DNA of 64,000 nt from Psammoneis japonica. Taxonomy: Eukaryota. Position 1 is the stretch's first letter. Every line of letters starts with the position of its first letter. The stretch is taken from assembly GCA_008632985.1 (NCBI GenBank), contig QPGO01000158.1, positions 1-64,000 on the forward strand, given 5' to 3'. This document shows, piece by piece, positions 1 through 60,334 of this stretch. A program made the translations under genes and the position numbers. Below the pieces are notes generated by a model. That model made no database searches. It was given only the letters and a program-made list of their open reading frames with translations, and was not told where the DNA came from.

Positions 1-31
1 CGTTGCGAGTTGACACCAGTGCGTGGATTGG

Positions 32-283
32 GGTCGTGACCACTTGGGATGCAACAATGCACTGTGTAGGATGGAGAGTTCAGGACTCTTCTTCCGGAAG
101 AAATGTCCGTTGAGTCTTCTAGCGACAGCAATCGGAGTGACACACACGACCGTCAGGTCACAATGTCATCTCCAATCCCTCGTGAGATCTTCTCACAATT
201 CGCATCTTTAGCGCATCTTATTGGGCTCATAACCACTTGGGATACAACAATACACTGTGCAGGATGGAGAGTTCAGGACTCTC
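32..283 (+). repeat. ~58-bp direct repeat (about 32-89 and 225-283) interleaved with the inverted repeat
   Basis: accacttgggat(g/a)caacaat(g/a)cactgtg(t/c)aggatggagagttcaggactct occurs twice. Confidence 0.9.
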
Positions 284-468
284 TTGAGGTTGTGCAATAC
301 AACAGAGGATGATAAGAAGTGGTTTTGGGACAATAAGATACGCTAAAGATACGAATTGTGAGAAGATCTCACGAGGGATTGGAGATGACATTATGACCTA
401 ACGGTCGTGTGTGTCACTCCGATTACTGTCGCTAGAAGACTCAACGGACATTTCTTCCGGAAGAAGAG
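86..468. repeat. Inverted repeat with 138-bp arms (86-223 / 331-468), foldback or MITE-like
   Basis: The left arm ctcttcttccggaagaaatg...gcatcttattg is the reverse complement of 331-468, with 5 mismatches. Confidence 0.95.
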
Positions 469-516
469 ATCCATGACCGGAAGCGTCATCCGTGAATCAG
501 ACTCGGTTGTTGACTC

Positions 517-2954
517 GTGACTAGACCGCTTGAACTTGTCCTAAATGGTTCCAAGGTTGCGATTGTTGCTTATTCCAAGACAGGTGATTGGAAAACGTGG
601 GTGTCGGAAACGACGACTGTCTTTTTGTCCCAACAAAGTCACAGCATCAAGTTGCTGGCTAAGGAGAGCTTGGGTCCTAACGTCGACTCAATCTCTTTAG
701 TCCTCGTGGATACACCTTCGATTTCTACAACCTCCAGTCCTACCTCTTCTCCCACCTGGACACCTACGCGTGGGCCCACACTCGAAGACTTCCCGATTTC
801 TACCGTCCGTGTCCCACCTACCCCTGTCTTCTATGTTCCGCAAGATGCTCTTCTTCACAACGTCAAGCTTCTGCAGAGACACGATGGCTATGAAAGGGGC
901 GCATACGCAGATTACGATGATTTCGGATCTTTTCTAGAATGGAGCATCACAATTCCTGTATCAGGTATTTATGAGATCACCGTTCGCTACGCGTCTAAAG
1001 GGTCCCGCCCGCTGGATTTAATTGTTGAGGGCACCGCTCGACGCTCGATTGCTGGCGGGGCATCTGGTGATTGGACAAAATGGGTGAAGGAAACGCTGGT
1101 TCTCAATTTGAATGCCGGGACTTTTCCCTTGAAGTTGCTAGCTGCAAATAGTTCTGGACCAAATGTGGACTGGCTCTCTATCCAAGGCGCGGGGCAGCCA
1201 ATTCCCACTCTGAATCCCACACAAGCTACGACACAATTTCAAAGTACGCCTGCACCGTCCCATCTTGCCACGCCTACTCCCACTACGAAGTCAACACTAG
1301 CTCCTGTGAGCACACCTAGGACCACCGTCAAAACAGCTTTCTACAATCCGTGGGATGCCACCGCCTACAAGGTCGACGTCTTGCAAAACCACGGGGGCTT
1401 TCAAGGCAATGGATACGGCGACTATGCAGGATTTGACTCTTTTCTTTTGTGGTCCATTGATGCTTTCGACTCGGACATACATGAGATCGTTGTCCGATAT
1501 GCCGCAAAGAGCCCTCGGCCGCTGGATGTGATAGTGGACGGAGTGATTGAAGGCAGTTTTCAGTTTCAAAGCACCGGCGATTGGAATTTCTGGAGAGAAG
1601 AGTCCTTAATTTTGTTCCTGCAGAAGGGATTGCATTCTTTCAAGCTATTGGCCAGAAGCAGTAAGGGACCAAACATTAACTGGGTATCGATTCGTCCTAT
1701 CAATGACGGGGTGCGACGTGAGCCATCTCGAAGCCCAACTGTAGTTCCGACTTCAAGCCCATACCCAACCACTCCCATCCAATCATATGACAAAGCTGTC
1801 GTTATAGATTCTGGCAAGTATATATCCAGAGGAGATTTCGTATCTTCTCCTAATGGCAATTTTCAGGTTGGTCTCTCAAGTGGTGGAGACCTCGTCTTGC
1901 TTAACAAAAATTCTGCTCTCATTTGGTCTGCTGGTGTCTCTAATGGACACGGTGTTATATGCAGTCGGACGGAAATTTGATTGTCCGAGATAGCAACAAG
2001 AAAGCCAGGTGGTCAACCAAAACGTACAAGAATCCTGGCGCTATCCTCGTTGTCGACGACGGTGGGTATATCGCTGTGATGCATGAGGGGAACCTAAAAT
2101 GGTTTGACGGCGTCCCACGTGGGCAGTACGTTGGACCGCCAAACAAGGGTTTGTCATTTCCCGCTCGCGGCGTTTTCTACTATCCATGGTATCCAGAGAC
2201 ATGGACAGTAAATGGCAAGTATTCTCACTTTGAACCTACGATCGGGCGATACAGTTCCAGCGATCCTGAAGTTGCGGCCGGACACATTGATGCCTTTGAC
2301 TACGCAAATATTAATCTGAGCATTGCTTCGTGGTGGGGACCAGAGACAAATTTGGACCGAGCTCGTTTGACAATGCTGATGGATGAGACCCTTGCTCAAG
2401 GTTCTGAAGTAAAGTGGACCGTTTACCATGAAGATGAACGAGGAGGGGATCCGTCAATCCAAGCTCTGAAAGCTGATTTGGAGTACTTGAAAAAGTGGTT
2501 TGTATGGCATCCTGCATGGGCACATATCAATGGGAAACCTGTCATTTTTGTCTACAACGAAAGCGATTGCGAGGTTGCCAGTCGATGGATGGCAGCTGCC
2601 AATGGAGAATGGTTCATCGTTCTAAAGCTGTTTGGTGGATACAAGACTTGCAGTCCCCAGCCAAGCCATTGGCACCAGTATGGCGTGGGAAACGGTTACC
2701 TTGAATATGATGGCGCCTCGGCAACTATTGCTCCTGGCTTTTGGAGAGCGGACAAGAGCCAACCAAGTTTCCCACGACTTTCGCAGCTTGAATGGTGTAA
2801 TAATGTTGAGAAAATGGTGAAGAGTGGCGAGCCTTTGCAGTTGATCGTCTCTTATAACGAGGCAGGAGAAGGAACGATGATTGAAAGCTCGCGGAGCTGG
2901 AAAAGTAATACAACGTATGGGTACTACTTGGACTGCTTGCACCAGCATGCGTGA
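517..2954 (+). CDS. Multi-domain carbohydrate-active protein: CBM6/CBM35-like repeats, Pro/Thr linkers, bulb-type lectin domain and GH99-like glycoside hydrolase. The 5' end appears truncated and there is a frameshift near 1950.
   Basis: There are three repeats of 'VRYA...RPL...TGDW..W...GPN(V/I)DW'. The B-lectin motifs 'SPNG.F...GDLVL...IWS' and 'MQSDGNL...WST.T' are split across ORFs 517-1980 and 1959-2954. GH99-like motifs are FYYPWYP, YSSSDP, SWWG and SYNEAGEGTMIE. Confidence 0.75.
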
Positions 2955-3215
2955 TCCGCACCGACGACTTTATATCTGGAGTATCCATTCGCCTATTTTT
3001 CGTCTTGTCGCGCTGAGTGTTGCCTATAATGTTTCAGCTACTATAGAGCAGCTATTACGAACTGAGCAGACTCTGATCAATGTTTCGTTGTTGTTCTATC
3101 TTCAAATAGTGCCTGTAGCGGTGTGTGGTGACTGGACGAGCCACCAAGCCAGCAGCTTCTGTGTATCTCTCGTCGCCACGCTCATTAAACTTGCGCTCTC
3201 TAGATACAATGGGCT

Positions 3216-7742: not shown

Positions 7743-9914
7743 ATGAGCCCAAATACAACGATTTCGTTTGAAGAACCGAGCGACGTTTCGGAGGACGGAT
7801 GGTTCTCATTCAACATTACCCACGCGGGTGGTTCTCATGTGCTTCAGATCTTGTATGCGTCGCCCAACTCCCGTCCTTGCAGAGTACGCATCGGTTCCCA
7901 AGTACAGTGGGTAATGGTGGCTTGCGGGACATGCGATTCGCCACAATGGTTCAATCACGAGGGAGTGTTTGACTTGGGCAAAAAAGGAACAGTCGAGGTG
8001 GCATTTCAATCTGTCAAGAACGCATGGCCTGAAATCCGTGCTTTTCGATTTGTTCCCGAACATAGCAATTCCATCAGTTCTTCATCATTGGGTACGGCTC
8101 GTACTGATCGTTACTCTTCCGGTTGGAGCCCAGGAACTTTCAACCCCTTCGCCTCGGTTACGTTTACGTTCGAGATTGGACTATCCTCGGAATACATGGC
8201 TACAGAACAGGATGTCGAGTACATTTCACTGTTTTTGCCGGGTAGGGCGGTCAAGTTCATGTTTGGTGAAGCCCATGACTGTTTTGTTATTGATGGAGAC
8301 CCCATCGGAGATCAGCAGGCAGGCGATAACTTTCCGCATGTTACATTTGTTGGCGACAACGATTTCATATCTACAATTACCATGGGGCTTTCCAATTGGA
8401 CTGACATGGACGGCGTTACTGGCTTTGCTGCGTTTACTGGACTAACGTTCGAACGACGGGGAAAGAAACGTGTGTTTGCAAAGAATCCTCTGGTGGGAGC
8501 AAGCCTAATGGAACCCACGTGGACGTACGATCGTAGAAGGTTGGGACTCAATCTATGGATGACATCTCTTTGCGCGCCAAGAAACAAGACGGTGTCAAGA
8601 TACGGTTTCACTCTGAGCTCTGACGATGAATTAGAATTTGATATCGGCCAATTTGATCGCTTCTGGGATTGGTTCACCCAAACAAAGGCACACATGGTGC
8701 AAAATTCAATCGAGAGTGTCAGAGAGAAACTTCAGCCAACATACCAATTTCTGGTTCGGTCCTTCTCCGGCAAACCATCAAACCCGCTTACGGCAGAAGG
8801 ATACCTCTACGGTACTCGAAGGCACATCAGCATCACTTACGACATTTTCTCAGTCCACATATACCGTCTCCCGAATGGGGAAGACTTTCAATCAACGCTA
8901 TTTGTCAAGGGGAGGCAGTATAACACTGACCGAAAGGGCATTGATGAAATTGCTTTATCTCGGACGCATGTACTTGCTCTTGCAATCAGCTATGCGCTGG
9001 CTGATACAGACTTGCTGTTCCAGATGGGACTGATTCGCCCGCAGGGTACCCGGGAAGGAAAGGATGTTAACGAAGTGGAGTTATTAAAACTACGCAAGGG
9101 CAAGAAACTGTTCAGGGGTGGAACCTTTGAAAACACAGAAATGGCGCGTCGGGTAATAAACATTTTGGCCTCGGCAGGTCTCCGACAAGTTGCGATTGAT
9201 ACTATTCTGGAGGATAAGAGCGGTTGGGATATTTATGATGTAGGCGCGGGGGCTGCGAGGATGTTTGCCCATCATCGCAAGTTTGATGTGTCGTTCGTAT
9301 CGGCCGCATTGGTCTGCAGTTTGATTCAGCTGCTACTCCCCATCTTGTTGATATGGCGAGGAGCAACTTCCGATAAAGAAGAGCTAACGTGGGATGTCTA
9401 TCTTGCTCGTCTTCTTTTCGGCCTGTACGCTGTGTTCTTTGAAAACAAAACGAGAGAGGTCGACAGCGGTGATAGGATAACGGGATTATTGTGCTTTCTG
9501 CCTGAGTTCGACACGAATAGACTCATGTTTGGTATCATGGTTAACAAGCTCTCGAAGCTGGTCATAAATGTTGCAATCATATTCCTCGTCCTAACAGGAT
9601 ACACAGTGGCTGACGTGACGCTCAACGCCCTTGCGCTATATTTCGTCTTTGACGTGGACGATGATCTTGTAGCCGATCGTGCCATCGAAGATATCCGACA
9701 GTTCCAGAAACGAGAGTATTTTGTTATCAAGTCCAAAACATCACTGGAATATACATCTGAACACTTTCCAGATGCTGAATTGCCTGCCATCGGAGATCTC
9801 CCCTCTGCATTTTTCGTGCTTACTTCCACCCCAATCCCCATTCTTGCCATAGGGCTTCTCTGCGCCGGATGTATCTGGATCTTTTTGGAGCCGTGGGTTC
9901 GTGGGTGGGACTAG
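7743..9914 (+). CDS. Hypothetical 723-aa protein with an N-terminal CBM-like fold and C-terminal multi-pass membrane region
   Basis: Long uninterrupted ORF. C-terminal hydrophobic helices include LNALALYFVFDVDD. Confidence 0.7.
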   Translation: MSPNTTISFEEPSDVSEDGWFSFNITHAGGSHVLQILYASPNSRPCRVRIGSQVQWVMVACGTCDSPQWFNHEGVFDLGKKGTVEVAFQSVKNAWPEIRAFRFVPEHSNSISSSSLGTARTDRYSSGWSPGTFNPFASVTFTFEIGLSSEYMATEQDVEYISLFLPGRAVKFMFGEAHDCFVIDGDPIGDQQAGDNFPHVTFVGDNDFISTITMGLSNWTDMDGVTGFAAFTGLTFERRGKKRVFAKNPLVGASLMEPTWTYDRRRLGLNLWMTSLCAPRNKTVSRYGFTLSSDDELEFDIGQFDRFWDWFTQTKAHMVQNSIESVREKLQPTYQFLVRSFSGKPSNPLTAEGYLYGTRRHISITYDIFSVHIYRLPNGEDFQSTLFVKGRQYNTDRKGIDEIALSRTHVLALAISYALADTDLLFQMGLIRPQGTREGKDVNEVELLKLRKGKKLFRGGTFENTEMARRVINILASAGLRQVAIDTILEDKSGWDIYDVGAGAARMFAHHRKFDVSFVSAALVCSLIQLLLPILLIWRGATSDKEELTWDVYLARLLFGLYAVFFENKTREVDSGDRITGLLCFLPEFDTNRLMFGIMVNKLSKLVINVAIIFLVLTGYTVADVTLNALALYFVFDVDDDLVADRAIEDIRQFQKREYFVIKSKTSLEYTSEHFPDAELPAIGDLPSAFFVLTSTPIPILAIGLLCAGCIWIFLEPWVRGWD

Positions 9915-9996
9915 ACATGCCAGCCAGTAGTATCGAATTGATAGATAATATAAGTATATTGTTTTAATGAACTAACTCTACATGATCAACCTGCGA

Positions 9997-11952
9997 TTAC
10001 TGATTGAAGCAGTCACCGTTATCTTCGCAGCAAATCGTGCAGCAAGGGCATACGACATCATCAATACAGTCAGCCGAAAGGAATGTGAGAAATGGGAGAA
10101 TGATATTCCCCGTGTCATCGCAAAAGAAAGACATATCTCCGGATAAACGATTCGCACTTAGGCCAAGACCTTCTGTGTCGAAAAGCGATGCGCAAGGGGA
10201 AAATGTTAACATGAGATTTCGAAGGGATCAGAAATCAGAATGGCGCTCAAAAACTTACGAAGAGATGAGAACCGTGAAAGAAACTCTGGTATTGTGCCTG
10301 TCAACTCATTTCTCAACAGCAAAAAAAGAGTAAGGGTCTGGGGAAGATTCTGAAACTCCACTGGAATGGGGCCACTGAAAAAGTTCCCGCTCAAGTCTGC
10401 CACCGTTAAGCTTGACATGTTCCCAAGTGATGGTGGCAGAGTCCCATTCAATCTGTTGTCTTGAACTGAAAACAGCGTGACATCTGTCAAACGGCCAATG
10501 TCACTTGGAAGGCTGCCAGTAAAGTCGTTGTCGGAGAAATCCAAAACTCTTGCTGAAGTCAAGTTCGATATTGTGCTGGGAATCGGACCAGTGAGGTTGT
10601 TGTCATGCACGCTTATAGATTGTAGGAAGGGAAGAGAACCAAGGTCAGAAGGTAGCGTGCCCGTCAGGCGATTAAGGTTTAGATTGAGAAAGTTGAGCGC
10701 CAACAATCTCGAAGGGAAGGATATGGGAAACCCAGTCAGACTATTGGAGTCCAGGGCGACATTTGAAAGTGAAGACAACTGAAGAAAGCTCTCTGGAACC
10801 GAACCACCAAGAGACGGGCTTCCTGATAATGTTATGGCCTGTAACCTTGTAAGCCTCCCGATCTCTGATGGGATACTCCCTGAGATTGTCGTTCCTGAAA
10901 ACCAAATCGCCACGAGGTTAGAGAGGTTACCAATCTCCGAAGGGATTGTACCAGAAATGCCATTTCTTGGCAACCACAAGAATTGCAGAGTTGAAATGTT
11001 AAATAACTTCGTGGGCAACGGCCCACTGATGCTGTTTGAGTTCAGTGCAAGGATCCTCAGGACCGATAATGCCCCTATTTCGGGGGGGAGGCTTCCCGTT
11101 AAGTTATTGTCCACTTCCAGATTATACGTACAATGGCCGAAAACAACGCGTGAGAATCGTTTTGTTACGGCACTATAGTAAACTTTCGTCATTCCGTCAC
11201 TCACTAAGTTCAATCGTTTCCACCTCTAGTTGAGGTGTGCATTGTGCAATACCAATCGCGCCGGTTATTGTCACGGCTCCTTCTGGCACAGCGTCTAACC
11301 ATTCGCATTCATGCGCGTCTGCCGAAAGAAATTTGGCTTGGTTTGTCCAACTCTTATCCCCACCAGTGGCGAAGTAAAACACAACAATTGCGTATCGCTG
11401 CATGAAACGTTCAGGAGCAACAGTATATAAATCCAAAAGAGTATCATCACGAGCGATCCATTCAGCAGCACGATACTGCGGCAAAGTAGAATCGTCAAGA
11501 GATATTCCAAAGGATGACTCCACCAGTGCCGCCACTTCTGCAAATGCAATGCTCGTCGGTGCGTCACTTGGTGCCACTGAAGGAAACACGGAAGGCGCGA
11601 CACTTAGCGTTGGTAGAGGCGTCGGAATGGGCACCAGCAGAGTTGTTGGCGTTGTTGGCGACACAATACTGCCTTCTTCTGAATCCAAAAGTCGCTGCCT
11701 GAACGTGCTGTGTTCATCTCGTTCTTCTTGAGAATCCACAATTTGTTTCCATAAGTCTTCGTATTGTCCTGTGTTCTTCTTGTGATTTGTGTGGTCATAT
11801 TCTCTCAGGAGTTTAGAGGAAGAAGTTTGCACCGCATTGCCGTTGTGAGCCTTTCTCAACGTTGACGCACGAACCGCATCATTCTTGGCTGAACCCGCCT
11901 TTGCCTCTGAGATGGCCACAAACACGACAAGGAAAAGCTCACTGAATCGCAT
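9997..11952 (-). CDS. Secreted leucine-rich-repeat protein, multi-exon
   Basis: Signal peptide MRFSELFLVVFVAISEA, LRR N-cap QRYAIVVFYFATGG..W, plant-type LRRs (LTGSLPPEIG) and a Cys-rich C-terminus (ADC...CPCCTICC). Confidence 0.85.
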
Positions 11953-12530
11953 TTTGTTTCCAGTGGTCCGTTCTTTTCAATAAAATAGAGCAAAAATTTA
12001 ATAGCCAATCTCGCCAAATTCAATTGCCAATCTCGTTGTCACCCATTGTTCGGCGCTTGACGCTTGATGCGACGAATTCTTTTCGCGCCTCGCTGATTTT
12101 GTGAGCGGAATTTTTCTTCAACGACGATCATCCGTTGGGATAACGGTTATAACCGCAAAAAATTCGTCCATTCTTTGTCAGTTTCCCGCCACCCAGCCAC
12201 GAGCCACCCTCATTTTTTTCATTTTTTGTATGTTTTCACTCTTTTCGAACGGACGATACCATGATGGCAAACGATGAGCCCTTGACAAAGAAACAACGGG
12301 GTCGGTTAAAAAAACTTCGAAAGAAACTATCCGAAATAAAAGAAGAAAGCGAAACAAGTGGCTTGACGTCTCGTCAGGATTCGGTCCGTACGTGAGGCTG
12401 CGACGAAACGTTGTAGAGACTGACTGACTGACTGACTGCTCGAACTGTCTGTCACTCTCTGCCATGGGTTTCTTTGTGAATCGTTTGTGCTGGACTTCCA
12501 ACAAAAAAAATTCTGGAAATCAATTTCACC

Positions 12531-12995
12531 TTTGAAAACAAAACGAGAGAGGTCGACAGTGGTGATCGGATAACGGGATTATTGTGCTTTCTACCTGAGT
12601 TCGACACGAATAGACTCATTTTTTGTTAACAAGCTCTCGAAGCTGGTCATAAATGTTGCAATCATATTTCTCGTAATTAAAGGATACACAGTGGCTGATG
12701 TGACGCTCAACGCCCTTGCTCTATATTTCGTCTTTGACGTGGACGATGATCTTGTAGCATATCTTGCCATTGAAGGCATACGACAGTTTCAGAAACGAGA
12801 GTATTTTGTTATCAAGTCCAAAACATCACTGGAATATACATCTGAACACTTTCCAGAGGCGGAGTTGCCTGTCATCGGAGATCTCCCGTCTGCTTTTTCG
12901 TTCTTACTTCCACTCCAATCCCCATTCTTGCCATAGGGCTTCTGCGCCGGATGTATCTGGATCTTTTTGGAGCCGTGGGTTCGTGGATGGGACTA
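12531..12995 (+). pseudogene. Duplicated 3' fragment of the 7743-9914 gene
   Basis: It encodes ADVTLNALALYFVFDVDD..., lacks the 5' part of the gene and has small frame-breaking deletions. Confidence 0.85.
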
Positions 12996-13076
12996 GACAT
13001 GCCAGCCAGACGCATTGAATGGATAGATCTAGAGTATATTGTTTTAATGAACTAACTCTACATGATCGGCCTGCGA

Positions 13077-15444
13077 TTACTGATTGAAGCAGTCACCGTT
13101 ATCTTCGCAGCAAATCGTGCAGCACGGGCACACGACATCATCAATACAGTCAGCCGAAAGGAATGTAAGAAATGGGAGAATGATATTGCCCAGGTCATCG
13201 CAAAAGAAAGAAATATCTCCGGATAGACGATTCGCGCTAAGGCCAAGACCCTCTGTTTCGAATAGTGATGCGCAAGGGGGAAATGTTAGCATGAGGTTTG
13301 AAAGGAAGAAGAAATCAGAATGGCGGGGTTGTCTGGTACCGATGCACTTAAACAAACTTACGCAGAGACGAGAAGCGAGAAAGAAACTCTGGTATCGTTC
13401 CTGTCAACTCATTTTCCAACAGCAAGAATAGAGTAAGGGTCTGGGGAAGATTCTGAAACTCCGCTGGAATGGGGCCACTGAAAAGGTTCCCGCTCAAGTC
13501 TGCTACCGTTAAGCTTGACATGTTCCCAAGTGATGGTGGCAGAGTCCCATTTAATCTGTTGTCTTGAACTGAAAACAGCGTCACATCTGTCAAACGGCCA
13601 ATGTCACTTGGAAGGCTGCCTGTGAAGTCGTTGTCAGAGAAATCCAAGACTCTTGCTAAAGTCAAGTTCGATATTGTGCTGGGAATCGGACCAGTGAGGT
13701 TATTGTCTTGCACGCTTATTGAATCTAGGAAGGGAAGAGAACCAAGGTCAGAAGGTAGCGTGCCCGTCAGGCGATTGAGATTTAGATTGAGAAAGTTGAG
13801 CGCCAACAATCTCGAAGGGAAGGACATGGGAAACCCAGTCAGACTATTGGAGTCCAGAGCAGCATTTGAAAGTGACGACAACTGAAGAAAGCTCTCCGGA
13901 ACCGAACCACCAAGAGACGGACTTCCTGATAACGTTATGGCCTGTAACCTTGTAAGCCTCCCAATCTCTGATGGAATACTCCCTGAGATCGACGTTCCTG
14001 AAAACCAAATCGCCACGAGGTTAGAGAGGTTCCCAATCTCCGAAGGGATTGTGCCAGAAATGTCATTTCCGGGCAACCATAAGAATTGCAGAGTTGAAAC
14101 GCCAAATAGCTCCTGAGGCAGCGGCCCACGAATACTGTTTGAGTTAAGTGCAAGGATCCTTAGGCTCGATAATGCCCCTATCTCAGGGGGGAGGCTCCCC
14201 GTCAAGTTATTGTCCACTGTCAGATTATACGTACAATGGCCGAAAACAACGCGTGAGAATCGTTTTGTTGCCAATACGAGTAAACTTTCATCATTTGGAC
14301 ACTCACTGATTTCAATCGTCTCCACCTCTAGTTGAGGTGTGCATAGTGCAATACCAATCGCGCCGGTTATTGTCACGGCTCCTTCTGGCACAGCGTCTAA
14401 CCATTCACATTCATGCGTGTCTGGCGAAAGAAAGTTGGCTTGGTTTGTCCAACTCATGTCCCCACCAGTGGCAAAGTAAAACACAACAATTGCGTATCGC
14501 TGTATGAAACGTTCAGGAGCAATAGTAGATAAATCCAAAAGGGTATCTGCATGAGCGATCCAATCAGCAGCACGATACTGCGGCGAGGTCGAATCGTCAA
14601 GAGATATTCCAAAGGATGACTCCACCAGTGCAGCCACTTCTGTAAATGCAATGCTCGTCGGTGCTTCGCTTGGCGCCACTGAAGGAAACATGGAAGGCGC
14701 GACACTTGGCTCCGGTGTACTTTCAACCGCACCGTCGTTGCTACTACTGCTGCCACGGCCAAGGACGATTCCTAGAGTCGTGCCCGCAGCAGCTGCGACA
14801 AGGACCACAAGAACTACCATGACCGTAATCCATCTCCGTTTGCGCCTGGATTTCTTGGGAACATCCGCTCGGACGTCCAAGGCCACTACGGCATTGCTGT
14901 CTAGAAATTCCCTCTGGCGTTGGACTTCCAAGTCTTGCGTCAGCACGGCTTCCAAAACAGGCTCGTCGGGGCCCGGAATCATGGGCGTATCAACAACCGG
15001 GGGAATTTGCTGTTCCGTGACGCTTGATCGCATCGGGGGGAGCGGAGCCAGGCCATCGTCAGGTCGTTGTGTGGATTTTGACATTTTGAAACGTGAGCGA
15101 GAAGATGTAAGCGTGACTGGTTGATCTATACCCGCTTCGGGTGCTCGTTGACTCCCTCTGATCCTTTCCCCTTTATGAACCATCATTGACACCTTTTTTC
15201 CGCCCTTGATTTCTCTCAGAGAATCGATACCGTGAGGTTCATCCTCTGCCTTGCTGGATTCCTTATGTACATCGCTACTTGTAGACGTGGGCACCATGCT
15301 TCTGCGATTGCTCTTTCGAGCGCCGGCGTTCTTTCCTTTGTCTTTCAGCTTTTCGTCGTCCATTTTACGTCTTGCTACGCTAATTCCAAATCTCGTCAAA
15401 GTGTATGCTTCTTTGACTTCGTTTCCTAAGAGAACATGCAACAA
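13077..15444 (-). CDS. Membrane-anchored (type II) LRR protein, paralog of 9997-11952
   Basis: Disordered N-terminus, then RRKRRW and a transmembrane helix, then an LRR ectodomain nearly identical to the upstream paralog. Confidence 0.85.
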
Positions 15445-18204: not shown

Positions 18205-19571
18205 CTACACAATTTCCGTGACACTCTTGACCATTCGTCCAGAACTGTTTCCACTTGCAGTTGATGCCGCACTACTGTTTGGATTTAATGGCATGAGCTC
18301 CATGGATGACTTATCTCGTTTTTGCTCGCTGGCATTGTTTTGCTTTTTTCGGCAATACCCAAAGATTTCGTCCCGTAGCGCACCCGGAAAGCAAACACGA
18401 GCAAAGGGTGATACCCAATCCATGCGAAACTTGGTATTGTGTTGCTTGGACGCAGTTCCCCGTGTACCGACACCAAAGACTTCCGTCACGCCGGGAACAA
18501 GTCGTTGCTTTGATAATGCCGAGTCGTGGTGTTGATAGTGGTGTCCCTTGAGTTTATCAATATGCGTCATGCTGCTCATGACAACATCAAACTGATCCAC
18601 CTTCATGCAACACGTGAATAATCCAAACAAAATAGCCTCAACCAACAAGAGCAAGATAAAAAACAAATCCAAGGGATCGTCCAAACAACGTCCTCCACCA
18701 CGCGTACCACCGCTTTGTCGTCCTCCTCGTAAATGACTTTTCGTCACACTCGAACAAGCCACAAAGCGCATGGCCAAGAGCGCAAGCGAGTAGAGACAGC
18801 TCAATGCCGTGTAAAAGACAAAGAGTAAAAAGAACTTGTGATTTCCAATTCCCACGCAATTATTGACCCAGGGACAGTGATGATCCATTTTGATAATGCA
18901 TCGTTTACAGACGCTGCAATGATGCGCTCGTTTGGGCTTAAAGCTCCCGCAACGTCTGCACATTCTTACGGTTCGTGTTGGTGTTGGAGCAACGATCGCG
19001 TCAGGTTTAGTAGAATTTGTTATCGGGTTCCAACAATCCCTTTTGTTGTTGCTGCTGCTGCGCTTGTGTCTGATTCGACGCGGCAGAAGCAGCACTCGCA
19101 TCCAAAAGTTCCTCGGGAGGTTCCGGCATGGCTTGGCATCGGGCGGAACAGCCCCAGGTCTGTCGTCATGGCTTTGAAATGCGCATAGCAGGCCAAGAGA
19201 GCCACGATACAAAATGCAGCCGAGTTGAGGTGCCCCGCCAGCGTGAGAGTCCGTCCGTGCTCTGGTGTGGTTTCGCTCATCCAGGGCGGAATAAGTATCC
19301 AGCATACGGCATAACAGCCATAAATGTGCAAGCCATACGTCAGCAGAGCACAAAATAAGCCACAACAGTCGACGTTTAACCAATGCTCATCGAAGGGACC
19401 CGTTCCGAATTTTTGTCTCTTGACCGTGGCAACCAGAGGCGGTGCGGCTGCTGCAGAAAGAGAAGAAGACCCAACCGCTGCAGCAGCCGAGTGGGGAGAC
19501 GTTGAATTGGAAGAGGATATTCCTCCGCCGCCACCAGCCACTTTTCTACGTGTTGCAGTTCCTTGTTGCAT
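18205..19571 (-). CDS. DHHC palmitoyl acyltransferase, frameshift near 19150
   Basis: C..C...KP.RAHHCSVCKRCIIKMDHHCPWVNNCVGIGNHKFF. The N-terminal half (DCCGLFCA...AMTTD) is in another frame. Confidence 0.92.
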
Positions 19572-23397: not shown

Positions 23398-26300
23398 TCA
23401 ATCCACGCGTGTGGATTTCTCTGTTGTAGTGCGTTGTCGTTGATATTGTTTACTCTTGCTCTGTGGAAGTCTCATTGGAGGCCTTGGCACGGAGGGCCGT
23501 CGAGAAACGCTCTGCCTTTTTGTCAACATTCTTACACGAATCTTGATAGCGTCACCGGCAATGTCGGTGCATTCCGACTTGTTGACACGGAGTCCATTGG
23601 TACCAAGAATGGCGTCAAGCTCGTCCGTATTGGGGAGTTCCACCATGACATTGTCATTCTCAATCTTGATGGGGAAGGTGAGAATCTTGAGGTCGCCTCC
23701 AATCTCGTCGCCATCTGCAAGTCCGAATTGCTTCTTGTGCAGAGGACATGCCACCTTGGCCTCGTCACTGACGCTTCCGAGGATACCCTGGACAAGACAA
23801 AGGCTTGCTTGTGGGGGCACATGTTTTGTGTGCAGTACCACTCGCCACGCTTCTCGTTGTTAAAGACAGCGAGCTGGGTCTCGCCGACAAGAATGGTAGA
23901 TCCGACATTGGGAGCAAAGTCTGATGTCTTACCGACAGTGACCCACGACTTTTCAGAGCGAGAGAAAACGTCGTCCTCGGGAGCTTGCCAGTTGGTTTGG
24001 GGTTGACCGTCTTTGGCCAATCGGCGGGGCGGAGCTGTCCACGCATATCGACAAACTCAATCATTTCGTCCTTGAGTTGATTCTCGTCCGTGTTGACAAA
24101 TTGCTTGAACTTGGCTCTCCTGGCTGGATCCTTGACAACCTCCGCCCATTCATCGTGGTAGGTGTCGACCAATGCTCCATGCGAGCATCGAGTTCGTCGC
24201 AGATGCCCAACGAATCTTCAATAATAACTTCCTTGAGGTGCTCAATCGGACCGCCTCCGTTCTTGCCCGATGGTAGCTTTTGTTGCCAAACGGCCGTACG
24301 CTCCAATTTGTCGGCTGTCAAGATGTAGTACATAATGTATCTGTCAAGGTACTTGAGGACAGTATCTTCGTCAATGTCAGAAGCAAAGAGCTGGGCATGG
24401 ACGGGGTTGGCTCCGCCGTTTCCTCCCAAGTAGAGATTGTATCCGTTCTCAGTTGCAATCATTCCGAAATCCTTTCCTTGGGCTTCGGCACATTCACGGA
24501 CACACCCCGACACGGCACTCTTCATCTTGTGAGGGGATCGGATTCCCTTGTATCGGTTCTCGACACGGACAGCAAAGGATACCGAGTCTTGGACCCCATA
24601 ACGGCACCAGGTGGAGCCGACACAAGACTTGACAGTACGGAGGGCCTTACCATAGGCGTGTCCAGACTCGAGACCAGCTGCTCCAAGCTCCTCCCAAATA
24701 TCAGGAAGCTGGTATTTGGCAGCACCAAACAAATCAATACGTTGAGCACCGGTGACCTTGGTGTAGAGATTGTACTTCTTGGCAACTTCTCCCATGACAA
24801 TGAGTTGCTCGGGTGTCAATTCACCGCCAGGAACACGAGGAACAACCGAATACGATCCGCCGCGTTGCATGTTGGCCATGGAACGGTCATTGGTATCCTG
24901 AAGGGCATCACGTCCCTCATCGATAATGACTCCATTGTTGAGAGAAGCCAGAATAGAAGCAACGGCGGGCTTGCAGACTTCGCAGCCGTCGCCGTGTCCG
25001 TGCTTGGCAAGAATCTTCTCAAACGAATCGACACTGGATGGATCGGCATCGGTCCTGACCAACGCCATGAGCTCGGGACGAGACATGTGGAAATGCTCGC
25101 ACATGTGGTTCGAGAGACTTCCACCGAGAGCTTCGAGTTCCTGTGCGAGAATGGTCTTGACTTGAGGTTCGCATCCACCGCATCCGGTACCGGCAGACGA
25201 GCACTTTTTCAGCTCGGCAAGTGTGCAGTCCTTTCCAATACTCTGAACAGCTTCGGCAATGGCTCCGCGGGTGACATCGTTACAGGAGCAAATCTGTGAG
25301 TTGGGGTCGGAAGAAACCTCATCAGAATCATCGACAACACCGCCTCTGGCCGATGGAGGAGCCAAAAGGTTGGCAGGGTCTTCAATGTCGGTGGGTTCGA
25401 CAACGGCAAGCTTGTGAAGGACGGCATAGTCGGAAGCATCTCCAACAAGGATACCACCACGAAGTCTTGTTCCAGCCTTGTTGAAAATCAACTTTCTGTA
25501 AACTCCCGAAAGAGGATCGTTCCAAACCATTTCCGTCACGTCGGTATCATCGGGCTGGGGTTGGTTGACCCCAAAGGATGCAACATCACATCCCAACAAT
25601 TTGAGCTTGGTGGACAAGTCGGCGCCCGTAAACTCCTTTTGCTCTGCATCAACACCAAGAGCCTCGTTGGCAACGGCACGTGCCGCAACGTCGGCCATGA
25701 CGTATCCGGGAGCAATAAGACCATAAATGAAATTGTTGTAGAGAGCAATCTCTCCAATCGCGTAAACGTCCTTGGCCGAGGTGTGCATGAGTTCATCCAC
25801 CACAATACCACCGCGTTCACCGATATCAATAGTGCCACAGTCCCGGGCGAGTTCATCCCGGGGCTTGATACCACAACTGACGACCACCATTTGAACCGGC
25901 AAGTCGTCCCAGTCCTCATTGCTGAATCGAAGAGCGGAAACGGGAGCGGCAGAGTCGTTATCCGTGGTACCGTCGGAACCAACAAAGGATTCCGTTCTGG
26001 CACCGCAATGCACCTTGAGGCCCATGTCTTCAATCTTGCCCACGAGTGCATCGTGGCCGCCTGAAAAGAAAACAAAAGGGGTGGAGCAAAGGTAAGATTC
26101 GATGTCGAGTGAAGCAAAAATCATAGCAACACGTCAATACAACAACAAGAACCAGACTCACCCTGATCAATCTGCCTGCACATGAGAATCGGAGCAAACT
26201 CAATAATGTGCGACTCGAGTCCCATATCAGCGACAGCCTTGGCTGCTCCAATCCCAAGAGTCCTCCACCAATCACGGCGGCGCTCTTGACATTGTTATCC

Positions 26301-28839: not shown

Positions 28840-31800
28840 TTACGCCCGGCGCTTCTTTGATTTTTTCGACGAAGACTTCTTACTCTTCTTCGACTTGTGC
28901 TTCTTCTCGCCCTTCGGCGTATCAATACCTGCTTCACGCTCAATGTCTTTGCTATCTAACTTTCGCTTCCCGGCTTGTGTACTCTGTATCTGTACAGTGC
29001 CAGAGCTAACGTCCACTTCCTTGTCTTTCAATGCTTTGGACCACTGCTCATCCGTGCCTTTGATGGCGTACTGCATGATTTCATCATCATGCATGAGTTC
29101 TGAAGGAAGCGGCTTGGAATTCTTTTGGCTAGAGTCTTGGAGCTTGGTCATTGCTGTCTGAGCAGCCTCTGCAACGTCTTCTTCCAAAGTTTGATGAGAG
29201 ACGTGCCGCATCTTGTCGGTAGCCTCCTGTGCCTTTTCAAGCTGCTCCTTGCCCAACAAATGAGCTTTTTCGCCCTCTTCCAGAATGGCATTCAGTGCCA
29301 CTGACAATTTACGCACCGCCTTGTTGAACATGGCTAACACTTGATTGGACGGAAGATTCAGTTCTGCCGTCAAGTGGTCAACGGACCTATTCTGAAGACC
29401 CATACCGCATAAAAGAGCAGCCTGCAAACTCGATAGCTTGACATCAGAGCCGAATCGTTCCTCAAAGTATAAACGACCTACGGCTGGCAGTAAATCCGTC
29501 ACGAGGTGATGATCACAAAGATTGCGACCATAGAGTTCCAAACGCTTCAAATCGTGTGGTGTCAAGAAGTAGTTCAACTCCTTTACGTCAATCTTGTTGT
29601 CCACAGAGGAGGTTGCGGTACCAGCGGCTTTGTCGATCAACCCTTCATCCACGTTCATATTTTCAAGCACAGCCAGTGCCAGACGAATCGGTAGGGACTG
29701 AAATGGACCACCCAGGAGAGCCACGAACCGTCGTTGAGTGTCCTTTAGAAAAGCGCTCAACCACTCGTCTTGAACATCGGTTCGTCTTGGTAACGCCCGT
29801 ACCATGATTGCTGAATGTTCTCCAGTTAGTTCGTTCGTAGTTTGCCTCAAGTACAATAATCGCATCCCTGCTTGCGACCAAAACTTGTGCAGCTGCAAAG
29901 TCAACCCAAATGACGTTCCGATCCAATCCAGTCGCGGCGCATCCACCTCGGTCAATGGAAGCAAAAGAGGTGGCAGTTCCTTGCGTGGCTTTAACTTTTC
30001 TCCTCGGATCCCCTTTTTCGAACCACTAGCATCATGACTATCGGATGCGCTACTCTGGTCATCATCTTCGTCTTGCTCTTCCTCGTCCGTACCATCTTCT
30101 TCATCGGACGCATCTCCCGTCAGAGAAATCATTTCACCATTGTAAAATCGAAACAAGAGCTCCATCGCACGTGTACCATATCCCATACCCTGAAGAGACG
30201 GATGGACGGCAATTCGAACGATTCGTGCACCACTCAACTGTGCAAACGTGGCGTCGCCAAACTGCTGCGAAATGGTCCACGGGATCATATCTCCCGCCGA
30301 TCGATGTCCCCGCGCCAACTGGGCTTGAACCGCCTTGCGCGAAATCTTTCCCTCCAAGGCAACTTGAATAACAGCCAACACGTCAGGAAGAGCACCGCCA
30401 TTGTCTTTTTGAGACTGCATGGGTGGCAACAGACAGAATACCGCATGAGCGGGTGCATCCGATAGCATTTGCAAATCGTTCGGTGAGTTCTTGTAGTGAG
30501 CGCTAGTGTAGAGAGCCATGAGCTTTTGCAGAAAGGATTCCGAAAGTTTGTGATGAGAAAAGAGTGCGTCGCGGTCGACACTGTACAATTCACATTCCGT
30601 GGGTGCCGGCGCGCCACCTTGCAGTTTCAAGTGATTCTTGATGGAGGATCCGCAGTCCAAACAGAGTAGCTTATTCAACCAGTTCTCAATAGCATCGCCA
30701 CTGGCATATCGAATCGGCGTTGACAATTCAAGCTCGGTCAATCCAGCAGCGGCGGACGACACATTGGCTGCGGCTTCGGCTGCTGCGGCCCATCGCGACT
30801 CATGAACCTTGGCTTCCGCCTTGTTTGACTTTGGTCCGGCAATGGCACTGGCGGCGTCTTGGGCAGCACTCTGCGTAGCGGACCTGATCCCCTTGGTATC
30901 ACGCAATTCCTTGATGAGCTTCAAACTCAGCGCCCTGCCCGTTCCTTCGTAGCCATTGACGGTAGAACTCAAAAAGACCAAACGATTGTTCTTGGTCAAG
31001 TTTTGGTTGGACAAGAGAGATGGATTGAGAATACTCTTTACAATAGGGAGTGGAATAGCAGCGGCTTCATCGACGGCAACCAATTCCGCCATGGCAAACG
31101 AGTCCAAGGATTGACCATTGACGGGAGGCGGAATGTATTGAATGACTTGACCATGAGTCTTGAATACATGAATGGCGGTGACGCACTTTGTCACTTCCCG
31201 ACCAGTCGCGTTGTTGTACGTGATGCTAAAATCCAAATGCTCTTGAAACTTGAGCGCCTTGAGTCCTCGAATCACAAAATCAAACACGGCCACTAGATTC
31301 TCAGGTTCTGGAGCGGTAACGACAATGTTGGAATACCAAGGAAATTGCTCCAGCTAGACACATGCCCATGGCAGCTGATTTTCCCCGTCCACGTGCCGCA
31401 GTCATGGCCAATGTGTTGTTGCCCGCCGTCATGCGTTTCTTGTTGTCATCGCTGCTGACGACATCCAAAAAGACCAGGAGCGCCTTGGCTTGATCGAGTG
31501 TCTTAGCCATGTCTACCAATACGCCAACGTGAGGTGTGTCCGCAAGTGATTCTTGCAAGCTTGATAATTCCTCCTTTTGTTTCTCAATTGCAGACGACGG
31601 CTGAACAATGACTTCGCCCCCGTCTCCCTTTTCATACGACACATTCTCCAAGGTTTTGAGTGCCGACTTGGAAAGGGGCAAGACGTTCAATTCATCGTCG
31701 CACACCAAACAACTCGTACACTTTCCAAGAGACAGAATGAACCGCTCGTTAAATCGCGGAACAACGTGTCCAGATGATTCCGTTCGATACCGAGCGTGTA

Positions 31801-32303
31801 CATCCATCGTCATGCAATACAGCTGTTTCAAGGACTGAACGCTCTTTAGTAGGAAAATCACCAGCCCACCACCCTCAACGGTTTCAATAGTTCGTGCCAA
31901 AATGTTGGGCGTGAGTGCTTCAAAGTCCTGCAACACGAGAATCCCCACTGTCGATCCCAAGACCCGATGCGTGTCCTTGTAGTAGCACCAATGAATGTCG
32001 GTACTACTAGAAACAGCTCAAAATTATCCATCGTCGACGCGTCTTCGTTGGCAAGACCTTTTGCTTTTTGTCGTTTAATCTTTTTCATTCGTTTTGACGG
32101 TGCGTCGAAAAGCCCAATTCCTTCTTGTAACACCAGAGCACCTTGGGACGGGCCTTGAGCGACGTTTTCGACAAGAGCAAGTGCAAATTGGGAACCTGAT
32201 CCTTGCCGTAGTCACCCACCAACACCAACATGCTCCGTTGGCCCGTCACCACTCCTCGTTCTAGTAGAGTACGAACTCGCTCATCTAGTTTCTTACGAAC
32301 CAT
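28840..32303 (-). CDS. NAT10: RNA cytidine acetyltransferase NAT10/Kre33, frameshifted
   Basis: MVRKKLDERV, LWCYKKELGFS, LQDFEALTPN, TAARGRGKSAA, DEAAAIP, STVNGYEGTGR, SAHYKNSPNDLQ and RIVRIAVHP. Confidence 0.95.
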
Positions 32304-32972
32304 GCTGTACTATAGAATGATTGAGGCTAAGCCATACAGTACTAGTCTGAGAACTGATAAGCAAGAACTGCGTGTTGGCTTGATGTTTGATGTTGTTGAT
32401 GCGTCGTCGGTCGTCGACGGTCGGCGGCAGAAAAATAAAATTGAAATTGAGTGGCAGGTTGACGGGGAGCTCATAACCAAAAAATTGACATGCGTGACTG
32501 ACGGTTTCTCAGTCGTGGATCGATGACGAGGACGACCAAACAAAAAAGCAAAAGAAAACCATGGTACATGAACAGCTGATGGACACTGTCATTATGAGAC
32601 TAGGCTTACAAAGTCTTTCGTTAAGGTCACAAATGCTTTCGAGCTGGATTGAGGACGATCACATATAGTGTTATGATCGAACGAGCCGATTACCTGTGGT
32701 CTGTCCGACCATCGATTTTGACGAGTTGCACGCATCTTGCATGCACAACCGCACAAATTTTCAAAAAATGAAAAACTCTCCACCCGACGCCCGACGCGAC
32801 GTTTCGCATCAGGCATACATACACCACTCCGCCGCCTGACTGGTTGCCATTTGCCATTCTTCGTCTTCCTGGACACTTTTACGATGGTCGAAAGCTTGGA
32901 CGAGACAAAAGAAAAGGCGCCATAAAGGCATTCTTTCCACAGCACACCGCTTGATGTTCGCCCTTTCCAACA

Positions 32973-33863
32973 ATGTCTAGAGACAGTAATGACGACGACG
33001 ACGACGATTCCTGCCTTGGTTTGGGATTCATGTTTGAGGGAGCCGAGGCCTCCGTGGTGAAACGCCTTCATTGGAAGATACCCAACGAAAACGACAATGA
33101 CGAAGAAGCGATTGAAGTTCTAGTCAAGGTTGTTGATGACGACCCCGGTGCGTTACAAAGCGGGCATTATCTGTGGCCAGGTGCACCGGCTCTAGCAGAA
33201 TACTTGCTGCTTTCTCGACGAGACAATGATCCTGAGATTCCTCCTCCCAAGTCAATCGTTGAACTCGGAGCGGGTTGTGCCTTGCTGTCTCTGACGGCAC
33301 TTTTGATATTTTCTTCATCACTTGACTCGGTTGTCTGCACAGATCATGACCCGGGAACATTGACAAGAGCCAAGGAAAATTATGAACTCAATCTGGCGGA
33401 ACTGCGTGACTTTAATGACATGGACGATCCGAGATGTGCAACTCTGGTGGAAAACGTCTCCTCTGTTCAATTTCATTTCGAGCCACTATCATGGGGAGAT
33501 GTCAATGCTGCCAATGCTCTTGTATCGGCAAATGGGAGTCGGTTCGACTGGATACTAGGATCGGATCTCATTTATTGTCAACAAGTCGTCGAACCTCTAT
33601 TCATTAGCGCATCCGCCTTGTTAAAAAGGGATTGTTCCAAAGGCGGCAAATTTATCTTATCTCAGAGCTTTGTGTACGACGAGGATACGGAACAAGAAAT
33701 TGAAAGAATGTGCGAAAAGCTAAACCTACAACGTATCGTCCGCGTAGACACACTTTCCGAAACAGCCGGCGCGGGAGTAAAAATTCAGGAGTTTTTACCC
33801 TTGCCTAGTAACAGTCAAAGAGCAGGTGACAATGTATTGCAAGGAACACTGCAGTATAAGTAA
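32973..33863 (+). CDS. Class I SAM-dependent protein methyltransferase (METTL21/Methyltransf_16-like)
   Basis: SGHYLWPGA, VELGAG, TDHD, LSWG and ILGSDLIY. Confidence 0.88.
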   Translation: MSRDSNDDDDDDSCLGLGFMFEGAEASVVKRLHWKIPNENDNDEEAIEVLVKVVDDDPGALQSGHYLWPGAPALAEYLLLSRRDNDPEIPPPKSIVELGAGCALLSLTALLIFSSSLDSVVCTDHDPGTLTRAKENYELNLAELRDFNDMDDPRCATLVENVSSVQFHFEPLSWGDVNAANALVSANGSRFDWILGSDLIYCQQVVEPLFISASALLKRDCSKGGKFILSQSFVYDEDTEQEIERMCEKLNLQRIVRVDTLSETAGAGVKIQEFLPLPSNSQRAGDNVLQGTLQYK

Positions 33864-42500: not shown

Positions 42501-42740
42501 GCCCAGCACTGGTGTGCATGGGCCACTGTTTCTGCCTGAGAGAAACACCAAAGGAAACATGCAACTCTGGCATTCTCAGTGCATCAGGAATCACTGGTTG
42601 GGCAGCAGAGCTGGTGGATGCCAGGATGATTCACATCAAAAGAATCACCCTGGAAATGGCCCAGCATGACACCCATTTTTTTCCACAATTGTCATTCTTT
42701 GTTGGTTGTGTGTCGGGTGCGTTTCATGACAGAAACATTG

Positions 42741-43348
42741 GGCAGCAGGTTGATGGAGAGCTCACAACAAAAATTGGCCTGCATGACTCATGCCATCTCA
42801 GTCACAGATGGTGAGAACAGCCAAATAAAAAACAGCAAAAGAAAAGCTGTGGGCACATGAACAAATGATGGAGGATGCACTGTCAGCACAAGATTGTTTT
42901 TTTTACGTTGATGACTTGCTGTGGTGTGATCCAAGGCACACATCTCCTTGGTTCAATTTCATTTCAAGTCACTGTCATGGGGAGATGTCATTGCTGTCAA
43001 TGCTCCAGTCTTGGCAAATGGGAATCAGTTTGACTGGATGCTGGGATTGGATCTCATTTGTTGGCAACAAGCAACAAGTCATCTCCAACCTCCATTCATC
43101 AGTGCACCAGCTCTCTTCCTTGCTTGAAAAAGGGTTCTTGTTCCAAAAGATGCAAATCCATCTCATCTCATCTCAGAGCTTTGCACATGATGAGGACACA
43201 GAACAAGAAATTGAAAGAATGTGCAAAAAGCCAAAACTGCAATGCATTGTCTGCACAGACACACTTTCCAAAACAGCAATCACAGGAGCTGAGCCCAAGG
43301 AATTCTTTCCCAGTGCCTTTCAACCATCATCACAGAGCAGGTGACAAC
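42741..43348 (+). pseudogene. Degenerate copy of the 32973-33863 methyltransferase gene and its upstream region (42741-42893 ~ 32451-32600; 42951-43348 ~ 33465-33833)
   Basis: SQSFAHDEDTEQEIERMCKKPKLQCIVCTDTLSKTA matches SQSFVYDEDTEQEIERMCEKLNLQRIVRVDTLSETA, and the DNA aligns directly. Confidence 0.95.
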
Positions 43349-43699
43349 ACATCAAGATCAGGAGGGATCAGGAACATCACAGCTCAAGCACAGCTGCTGA
43401 AAATGTCAACACAAAAAGAATTCTCATGAGCAGCTGGGTTCAACAATGCAATGGGCCACAAGTGCTGCACATTCATTCGGCAGGGCAGCACATGTGGAGA
43501 GCATGCCCACACCCACAACATTTAGATTTCAGGTCTTGGACTGAGCTCACATTGGGCCATCCCCAGCATGGCAAACCAAGCAACTCAACAAATGCAAAAA
43601 CATGCTGAAACAAATTTTGCTGCACCCATGTGTTGTGCTGGAGTCACCTCAGCTCAAGTGGCAGTGCAAAAAAGCTTGGCTGTGAATCACTTCTTCTTT

Positions 43700-44400
43700 C
43701 AACACACAAAATGCAGTCTGCAGAAGATCTGAAGCAATGGGTGCACCCATGTGCCTCACTGGATGGCCCTGAGTTCTCCTGTGTGTTGTGAGCCCTGACA
43801 AACCATCACCCTTCCAAATTCTTCTGTGACCACAGTGACCTTGAGACCACTTTGTTGGGTGTGCACATTTTTGGTGTGTGCACTCCACTCCTGTGGTGCT
43901 CACCTCTGGATTTCTCTTGTGCTTGCAGGCTTCTTCTGAGTGCCACAGCCATTCTGTGTGCACTGGTTGGACTCAGCCACAAATTTTGTCCCATGGTCAA
44001 AAATGTGACCTGGGATTGTCGCAGGTGTCTGCATGACCAGGCTTGTTCTGCAGTGCCTCCTGCCACTGTGTCTGTGCATTTTGCAGTTGAAACTCTCTGC
44101 AGCCGGTGTGTTTGGCATGTTCTTGGCCATTTGACAATCATGGGGGTTGGCTCTGCACCAAGGCACTTGGTCCATTGCCACAAACCTGTGTTTGGCTCTC
44201 CAGTGCTCCTCACCACCAAGCTGGGAAACACACCATTTTCATTGGTGTGGTCATTGCAGTGGTCATGGCTGGGTCCAAAGCTGGGCTGCTGTGTTGTGAT
44301 GGCCTTTGAAATGGCATGGGCAGCAATGCACAGCTCTCCCATGTCATCCCATGGGGGCTTGATCTTCTCCTGTGCACACACCACCCTGCATGAGTGACAA
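43700..44400 (-). mobile_element. Degenerate LTR-retrotransposon (Ty3/gypsy-like) integrase remnant
   Basis: Across frames, AEQAWSCRH.RQSQV / IFDHGTKFVAE / KRNPEVSTTGVECTHQ resemble the integrase core W..RYP.P....DRG.EF...NPQAN..VER.H. Confidence 0.5.
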
Positions 44401-59978: not shown

Positions 59979-60300
59979 AACGCATGAACAAGCCGTTGAA
60001 TCTGCAAATTTTCGTGACTCGCGGCCGGTGAGTCACGAAAAAAACACTCTTTGCGCGTCAATCGCGCGCAATTCTCACCCTCTGCGCGACCTTCATGCGC
60101 GCTTTTCAACGCACGAGCGGGCCGTTACACGCACGAGCGGGCCGTTAAACGCATGAACGGCCCGTTGAATCTGCAAATTTTCGTGACTCGCGGCCGGTGA
60201 GTCACGAAAAAAACACTCTCTGCGCGACAATCACGCGTGCTTGTCAACCTCTGCGCGACCGTCTTGCGCACTTGTCAACGCATGAGTGGGCCGTTGAACG
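59979..60300. repeat. Direct repeat of ~80 bp (period 169 bp) containing a palindrome, plus ~20-bp subrepeats
   Basis: ccgttgaatctgcaaattttcgtgactcgcggccggtgagtcacgaaaaaaacactct occurs twice, and acgcacgagcgggccgtta occurs twice. Confidence 0.9.
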
Positions 60301-60334
60301 CATTCCGTACTACCGGTACCGGAGGACACGTACA

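Follow-up and report, generated by a model that had tools for sequence, protein, structure and literature searches.

Copies of a short, high-copy repeat in the diatom Psammoneis japonica differ from each other mainly by exchanges between TpA and either CpA or TpG, and these exchanges are specific for one trinucleotide and one strand. The repeat is located at the left end of the window analyzed here, which comprises positions 1 to 64,000 of contig QPGO01000158.1 (assembly GCA_008632985.1, forward strand). The chances are about even that the mismatches between the two arms of an inverted repeat within this element originate from variants of the repeat family, with A-to-G at T-A-C as the likelier direction of change. 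The features of this region are as follows.

1 to 522, no strand assigned: high-copy non-coding modular repeat, one copy or the right-hand part of one (from contig depth; the left end lies beyond the window).
27 to 89, plus strand: first copy of module A (A1), the 63-nt unit of a direct repeat; 57 of its 63 positions agree with 220-282.
86 to 223, plus strand: left arm of the inverted repeat (module B), with CpA at all five mismatch sites (repeat search and comparison).
89 to 102, no strand assigned: 14-nt palindrome TTCTTCCGGAAGAA, situated at the outer end of the left arm and with a mirror image at 452-465 (self-complementary match).
220 to 282, plus strand: second copy of module A (A2; repeat search and comparison).
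283 to 330, plus strand: spacer, containing a degenerate partial copy of module A (alignments).
331 to 468, plus strand: right arm of the inverted repeat (module B'), with TpA at the five mismatch sites (repeat search and comparison).
469 to 522, plus strand: tail, with which the repeat ends sharply at 522/523 on its right side.
523 to 2954, plus strand: gene of a CBM6-repeat, lectin-like and GH99-like protein (Pfam CBM_6, 9e-16; Glyco_hydro_99, 4e-14).

The Pfam matches of the window are of eukaryotic type. A NAT10 gene fragment on the minus strand (31,305-32,135) has its best relatives at 59-67% identity, and all of its organism-labelled matches are diatoms, which include Chaetoceros, Cylindrotheca, Pseudo-nitzschia, Nitzschia, Epithemia and Mayamaea. 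The reading frame of this conserved and essential gene changes three times, near 32,100, 32,008 and 31,335; the changes lie partly in short homopolymers and leave no room for introns. The assembly thus appears to carry small indel errors, so that some letters may be wrong. Two further repeats of the window are a 2.2-kb direct duplication with genes of LRR proteins (9,437-11,608 and 12,530-14,710), which is 91% identical and has a mixed mismatch spectrum, and a 169-nt tandem repeat (59,979-60,302; 1.9 copies, 87% matches) with nested repeats of 20 and 31 nt, which contains no differences of the CpA/TpA type.

Across positions 1-3000, the repeat search found only one inverted repeat. Its arms (86-223 and 331-468) are each 138 nt long, 96% complementary and 107 nt apart, and the 3' part of the spacer extends it imperfectly by about 14 nt. 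The initial annotation had stated that the arms differ at five sites, all of them CpA versus TpA. Direct comparison yielded exactly these five mismatches (129/425, 154/400, 161/393, 203/351 and 214/340); in each case, the C of a CpA in the left arm corresponds to the T of a TpA in the reverse-complemented right arm. The counts given for the two dinucleotides were likewise reproduced: five of the eight TpA of the right arm differ from the left arm, and all nine CpG of either arm are unchanged. No indel occurs in the alignment of the arms or in that of the 63-nt direct repeat.

The 2.2-kb duplication, in which 23 of 124 flank-identical mismatches are of the CpA/TpA type, served as the background spectrum. 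Compared to this background, the finding that all five arm mismatches belong to the CpA/TpA class has p = 2e-4; for the arms and the adjoining direct repeat taken together, in which nine of 11 differences belong to this class, p is 1e-5. When five random substitutions were simulated on the arm, all fell into the CpA/TpA class in a fraction of 1e-5 to 2e-4 of the 200,000 trials, and in none of these trials were all five additionally found on one arm and one strand. Other repeats of the window have mixed mismatch spectra. For TpA, the observed-to-expected ratio (o/e) amounts to 0.32 in the left arm compared to 0.76 in the right arm; the genome value, 0.54, falls between the two. The arm mismatches are real and statistically solid, and their description as a non-random, strand-coherent class that leaves CpG untouched agrees well with these numbers.

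The adjoining direct repeat displays the same class of change. A1 and A2 differ by G33C, G36A, G38A, G51A, G59A and T67C. Three of these six differences are TpG in A1 versus TpA in A2 (38, 51 and 59), one is TpA versus CpA (67/260), one is CpG versus CpA (36/229) and one is a transversion (33/226). Hence, four belong to the class seen in the arms and one is at a CpG. The layout of 27-522 is A1 - B - A2 - spacer - B' - tail, so that there are two pairs of module A (63 nt) with module B (138 nt), namely A1 plus B (27-223) and A2-spacer-B' (220-468), from which the 138-nt inverted repeat results. In the first pair B is inverted, whereas the order A-spacer-B' is that of other genomic copies: a 543-nt contig (record 2) of the independent sequencing run X1 spans 233-463. 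In a further contig, 89 is linked to 223 with a switch of strand, which places the end of A directly onto inverted B, and in five X1 contigs the match ends at 223, beyond which they are unlike the window.

For the assessment of neighboring bases, every site was written in the orientation that puts a purine after T at the variable position. All six T-R-C sites (TGC versus TAC) differ between the copies, three of three in the arms and three of three in the direct repeat, compared to three of the 30 other T-R-N sites of both repeats (Fisher p = 4e-5). Broken down by trinucleotide, the differing sites are 6/6 for TAC, 2/11 for TAA, 1/11 for TAT and 0/8 for TAG. The specificity is thus not one for TpA in general, as had been proposed initially, but one for the trinucleotide T-R-C. 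In the whole of 27-522, 14 of 18 T-R-C triplets vary, either from copy to copy or within the family, versus eight of 92 others, the variable positions having been entered by hand from the copy comparison and the contig variants. The 2.2-kb duplication has no such preference (6/85 T-R-C versus 17/308 others; 6/85, 9/106, 2/91 and 6/111 for N = C, A, G and T, respectively). The differences are also coherent with respect to strand. If copy 1 is taken as A1 plus the reverse complement of B and copy 2 as A2 plus B', nine of the 11 differences in element orientation are G in copy 1 versus A in copy 2; one is T versus C and one is a transversion.

The number of copies in the genome was estimated from contigs of three runs, all of one sample and one study, which were placed on positions 1-1500. 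In every bin of 1-550 the summed contig depth was between 1,014 and 11,290, compared to 52.5 in 750-1500; the repeat is covered at 19 to 215 times the single-copy depth and its high copy number is evident. From run X1, 131 contigs were placed, 41 of them with a likeness of at least 99%, 37 with 95-99%, 34 with 90-95% and 19 with less than 90%. This implies that 1-522 is a member of an old and diverse family with a copy number of roughly 20-200. No further copy was detected in the 64-kb window, and this included a purine/pyrimidine-coded scan for transition-masked copies. Two 21-nt motifs of the repeat had no matches in metagenome contigs, and one of the two also had none in genome contigs and none in viral contigs. 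A protein search with the 80-residue frame that runs through the repeat (70-309) gave no relatives, a tRNA search of the repeat found none, and no Rfam family scored above threshold on it.

Among the variants listed, five positions of 1-522 carry an alternative letter with at least 5% of depth.

38: G to A, 100% of depth.
294 (spacer): G to A, 85% of depth.
299 (spacer): A to G, 38% of depth.
399: T to C, 36% of depth.
428: G to A, 84% of depth.

With the flanks of the window, all five are TpA versus TpG or CpA, and at all five TpA is the majority state, which need not be the ancestral one. The G38 of the window is not supported by any X1 contig. None of the five positions is one of the five arm mismatch sites. 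At the ten arm-mismatch positions and at the other differences of the direct repeat, no alternative letter with at least 5% of depth is among the variants listed; these variants are seen via X1 contigs of one sample, which were possibly placed only on the best-fitting arm. Both arms are covered at a depth above 1,000, and mirrored bins of the right and left arm have depths of 3,032 versus 1,372, 7,550 versus 3,822 and 4,609 versus 1,014, i.e. a ratio of about two. We read these depths as indicating that both arm types are common in the genome. Because both types are abundant among the copies, the mismatches probably predate the present copy and stem from two family variants. The initial annotation had regarded the mismatches as an early snapshot of a strand-coordinated process. 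The strand-coordinated class stands; an early event at this very locus is not supported, the region being one copy of a high-copy family in which both arm types are abundant.

The right boundary of the repeat falls inside the first CBM6 repeat of the adjacent gene. Two X1 contigs match the window up to 522 and then diverge, whereas an X1 contig from the same locus (record 6) and a paralogous contig (about 85%) from the low-depth run X2 match from 523 onward only. Upstream of 523, the X2 paralog reads in frame VTIRYAAKTN, including the RYA motif of CBM6. The ORF that starts at 517 contains a first CBM6 repeat without its N-terminal half, which is exactly the half present in the X2 paralog. Since the half that is missing from the first CBM6 repeat is read upstream in the paralog, the 1-522 repeat interrupts or truncates the CBM6 gene. 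Further downstream, the CBM6 and lectin ORFs overlap out of frame at 1,959-1,980, another apparent sign of small indel errors in the assembly.

The same-locus X1 contig (depth 52.5) has seven differences from the window in 978 nt, six of which are listed. Four of these six belong to the CpA/TpA class, namely TAC in the window and TGC in the contig at 766, 966 and 989, and TAG versus TGG at 819. In run X2, the letters at 819, 966 and 989 are those of the window, and both states are present at 766. At position 989, the X1 contig has TGC where the window has TAC, the tyrosine codon of the RYA motif that the other CBM6 repeats retain.

A process that eliminates TpA can be observed elsewhere in the window. 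In an island of 9.5 kb (about 39,750-49,250), the o/e of TpA is 0.01-0.10 (about 0.03 overall) and that of CpG is 0.02-0.31 (about 0.14 overall), compared to 0.54 and 0.97 in the rest of the window. CpA and TpG occur at about twice their expectation, and the borders of the island are sharp. The island contains a decayed copy (42,737-43,277; 72-77% identical) of a segment of the Methyltransf_16 gene, which is located at 32,446-33,766. The clean differences were counted from the longer of two aligned pieces (33,454-33,766 versus 42,940-43,277). There, all 15 CpG-type differences are CpG in the gene and TG or CA in the island copy, and all 12 TpA-type differences are TpA in the gene and TG or CA in the island copy; the same piece contains five transversions and four other transitions. 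As all clean differences point to TG or CA in the island copy, the removal of TpA from the island, whether by a process or by a constraint, is real and of known direction, which is in line with the TpA-removing process postulated initially. Because the TA-free zone extends beyond the CpG-poor zone at both ends, the losses of TpA and CpG look separable, as the postulated independence from CpG decay demands. A total of 23 TpA remain, 19 of them in TTA/TAA contexts, and survival relative to expectation is 18% for TAA, 9% for TAG, 2.4% for TAC and 1.7% for TAT.

No strand runs were found in the CA/TG series of the island (z = -0.16). In the short island paralog, a hand count that is only suggestive gave 14 TpA changes in four runs versus about 7.4 expected. 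None of the 12 ORFs of at least 150 residues that overlap 39,800-49,600 had a Pfam match. At the right border, 49,360-49,480 is a CTAG-rich and partly palindromic low-complexity block, and 21 TAG/CTA triplets occur in 49,251-49,500. Outside the island, TAC is rare compared to TGC in 54,251-54,750 (1 versus 26) and in 19,001-19,500 (5 versus 32), which may reflect codon usage in GC-rich coding sequences.

We infer that the arm mismatches would have been inherited from two family variants and not have arisen as new mutations at this locus. These variants would be separated by one strand-specific and trinucleotide-specific burst of transitions, which may have occurred on a single-stranded intermediate or on one DNA strand. 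The direction of the burst was more likely A-to-G at T-A-C than the reverse, as in the clearing of TpA from the island. We lean to this direction because the order of contexts in the island parallels that in the repeat: TAC and TAT are lost most and TAA least in the island, and TAC is the context that differs at all of its sites in the repeat. A-to-G is also favored by TpA being the majority state at the five family-level positions and by the Tyr codon TAC at 989. The same holds for positions 154/155, where the left arm has CA and the right arm either TA (64% of depth there) or TG (36%): two changes account for this three-state step if TA was the original state, and every other original state requires more. 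Two results speak against this direction. Strand runs are missing from the island as a whole, and in the complete genome TAC is the least depleted TAN trinucleotide, with a TAC/(TAC+TGC) of 0.395 compared to 0.29-0.35 for the others, which does not agree with a general pressure from TAC to TGC.

The opposite direction would apply if a RIP-like or other cytosine deamination had acted in place, which we consider possible but rather unlikely. It would have been a bottom-strand pass over 220-468 with C-to-T changes at CpA, mostly in G-C-A, that made TAC from TGC in A2 and B', possibly via a RID-like DNMT4. The chemistry is ordinary, and the nine plus-strand G-to-A changes lie in one contiguous block (220-468), including CpG to CpA at 229, with a single change in 27-223. 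The genome-wide retention of TAC is consistent with it as well. RIP is commonly indicated by TpA/ApT above 0.89 and (CpA+TpG)/(ApC+GpT) below 1.03. For B' alone, these indices are 0.73 and 0.83, so that the second one speaks for RIP; for the element 1-522 they are 0.47 and 1.09, and neither reaches its threshold. RIP in Neurospora has a repeat-length threshold, and with about 200 nt the present repeat unit is short for it. Furthermore, only G-C-A sites were hit consistently (6/6), compared to 3/30 other CpA/TpG sites, and with both arm types abundant in the family the event need not have taken place at this locus. The one process in the window whose polarity is established removes TpA rather than making it.

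In RIP, which presupposes a RID/DNMT4 gene and a sexual cycle of the host, and in the present repeat alike, transitions affect CpA/TpA in repeated DNA on one strand per copy; here, nine of 11 differences are at CpA/TpA and all but one are transitions, although the hints from the island and the family lean away from C-to-T. The preference for CpA and the sparing of CpG correspond to what is described for Neurospora (PMC2621366). The differences are that the host is a diatom, that one trinucleotide (G-C-A / T-G-C) and not CpA in general is affected, that the repeat is short and present in many copies with both states abundant, and that the island in the same window loses TpA, which is the opposite of the RIP product. 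RIP is described as fungal-specific (PMC2621366). A DNMT4 related to fungal RID is reported for diatoms, where it is present in 31 of 60 species, and the function of this RID-like enzyme is called unknown in the same source (PMC9998398). In the parts of a kingdom-wide preprint on RIP that deal with stramenopiles, these serve as outgroups only. Full-text literature searches turned up neither RIP-like nor TpA-specific hypermutation from diatoms or other stramenopiles.

An artefact of sequencing or assembly would consist of A/G miscalls at T-A-C and T-A-G, or of polishing with reads from other copies; we consider it improbable. Nanopore miscalls affect the same trinucleotide class, with TAG>TGG followed by TAC>TGC as the most striking mismatches (Weirather et al. 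2017, PMC5553090), and A/G substitutions are reported to be three to five times as frequent as transversions (PMC8486125). The small indel errors indicated by NAT10 and the lack of any X1 contig with G38 point in the same direction. However, a miscall that depends on context should recur wherever the context recurs, and this was not found: A1 and A2 differ at 51/244 and 59/252 despite identical flanks, where such a miscall would hit both copies, and the two arms offer the same contexts to reads of two strands. Both states exist within the independent run X1 at 294, 299, 399 and 428. At 766, 819, 966 and 989 the window has TAC or TAG and X1 has TGC or TGG, whereas an A-to-G miscall in the window would give the reverse. 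The complete lack of indels in both the 138-nt and the 63-nt alignment also argues against an artefact.

Even less probable is selection on a hairpin RNA transcribed from the minus strand, in which only those changes that preserve pairing by G.U wobble would survive and the mismatches would consequently lie on one strand. The predicted minus-strand hairpin does accommodate the five sites as G.U pairs in an unbroken 138-nt stem (-319.8 kcal/mol), whereas the plus strand would have five C.A mismatches (-308.0 kcal/mol). Among five transitions, however, a one-strand G.U pattern at all sites has a chance of 1 in 16, and neither the CpA/TpA class nor the T-R-C specificity is explained in this way. 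Moreover, the same class of change occurs in the direct repeat, where there is no self-pairing. Rfam gave sub-threshold matches only, to MIR839 (60.8 bits, gathering threshold 200) and MIR869 (48.4 bits, gathering threshold 330); both are long plant miRNA hairpins, and at these scores the element does not qualify for a miRNA-precursor family. Ordinary transitions in a young local duplication that look specific by chance are hardly credible: the total is only 11 differences in a case picked from a very large scan, but p is 1e-5 for nine of 11 in the class and 4e-5 for the trinucleotide preference, and the class recurs in five of five family variants and in four of the six listed differences from the same-locus X1 contig.

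Strand-coherent hypermutation of repeats in a specific sequence context is known from fungi (RIP) and from the editing of animal retroelements. In the latter, APOBEC-type G-to-A and ADAR-type A-to-G clusters occur; APOBEC and ADAR are animal families. The repeat described here shares with these deaminase footprints the single type of transition on one strand of the element and the preference for certain neighboring bases. The natural target of TadA is U-A-C-G in tRNA-Arg, which resembles the T-A-C-R of the repeat. tRNA adenosine deaminases (TadA/ADAT2-3) can deaminate A as well as C in DNA (PMC10354150), and a dual deaminase of this kind would match the loss of both TpA and CpG from the island. 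The amphioxus ADAT2 enzyme, however, prefers GAA and TCG (PMC10354150), in contrast to TAC and CpG here.

With respect to its architecture, the element resembles MITEs and foldback elements: it is short and non-coding (no ORF with relatives), it exists in many copies as judged from a depth of 19-215x, and it contains long internal inverted repeats. It differs from them in that the 138-nt arms (86-223 and 331-468) are internal to the 1-522 block and not terminal; the block itself runs off the window at the left, and it is not known to have a transposase relative. The sharp boundary inside a coding sequence is reminiscent of introners, which sit in coding exons and are spliced out at sites supplied by the element and its target duplication. 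In diatoms, introners are reported from Thalassiosira oceanica (PMC12130899). An AG is located at 523-524, at the repeat boundary in the first CBM6 repeat. The intron at 26,030-26,110 (minus strand) has a pyrimidine-rich 3' end, which is absent from the 1-522 repeat.

Besides the origin from family variants, which we favor, a more far-reaching proposal is possible, albeit tentative. A diatom mutator or editor may remove TpA by A-to-G changes at T-A-B, with TAC being lost first and TAA last; the repeat family would then represent an early stage, limited to one strand and to TAC, and the island the end stage. Such an activity would have single strands of DNA that is repeated or silenced as its substrate and would not depend on CpG decay. 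It would resemble a genome defence whose product is opposite to that of fungal RIP, and might be due to a TadA/ADAT-like or other deaminase. Should the T-A-C/T-G-C signature originate from the sequencing platform, it calls for caution in scans of long-read assemblies that rely on dinucleotides. If it is biological, the T-R-C sites of one family and a TA-free island together provide a countable read-out, which could serve to search for the enzyme, to date repeat activity and to explain the strong TpA deficit of this genome (o/e 0.54).
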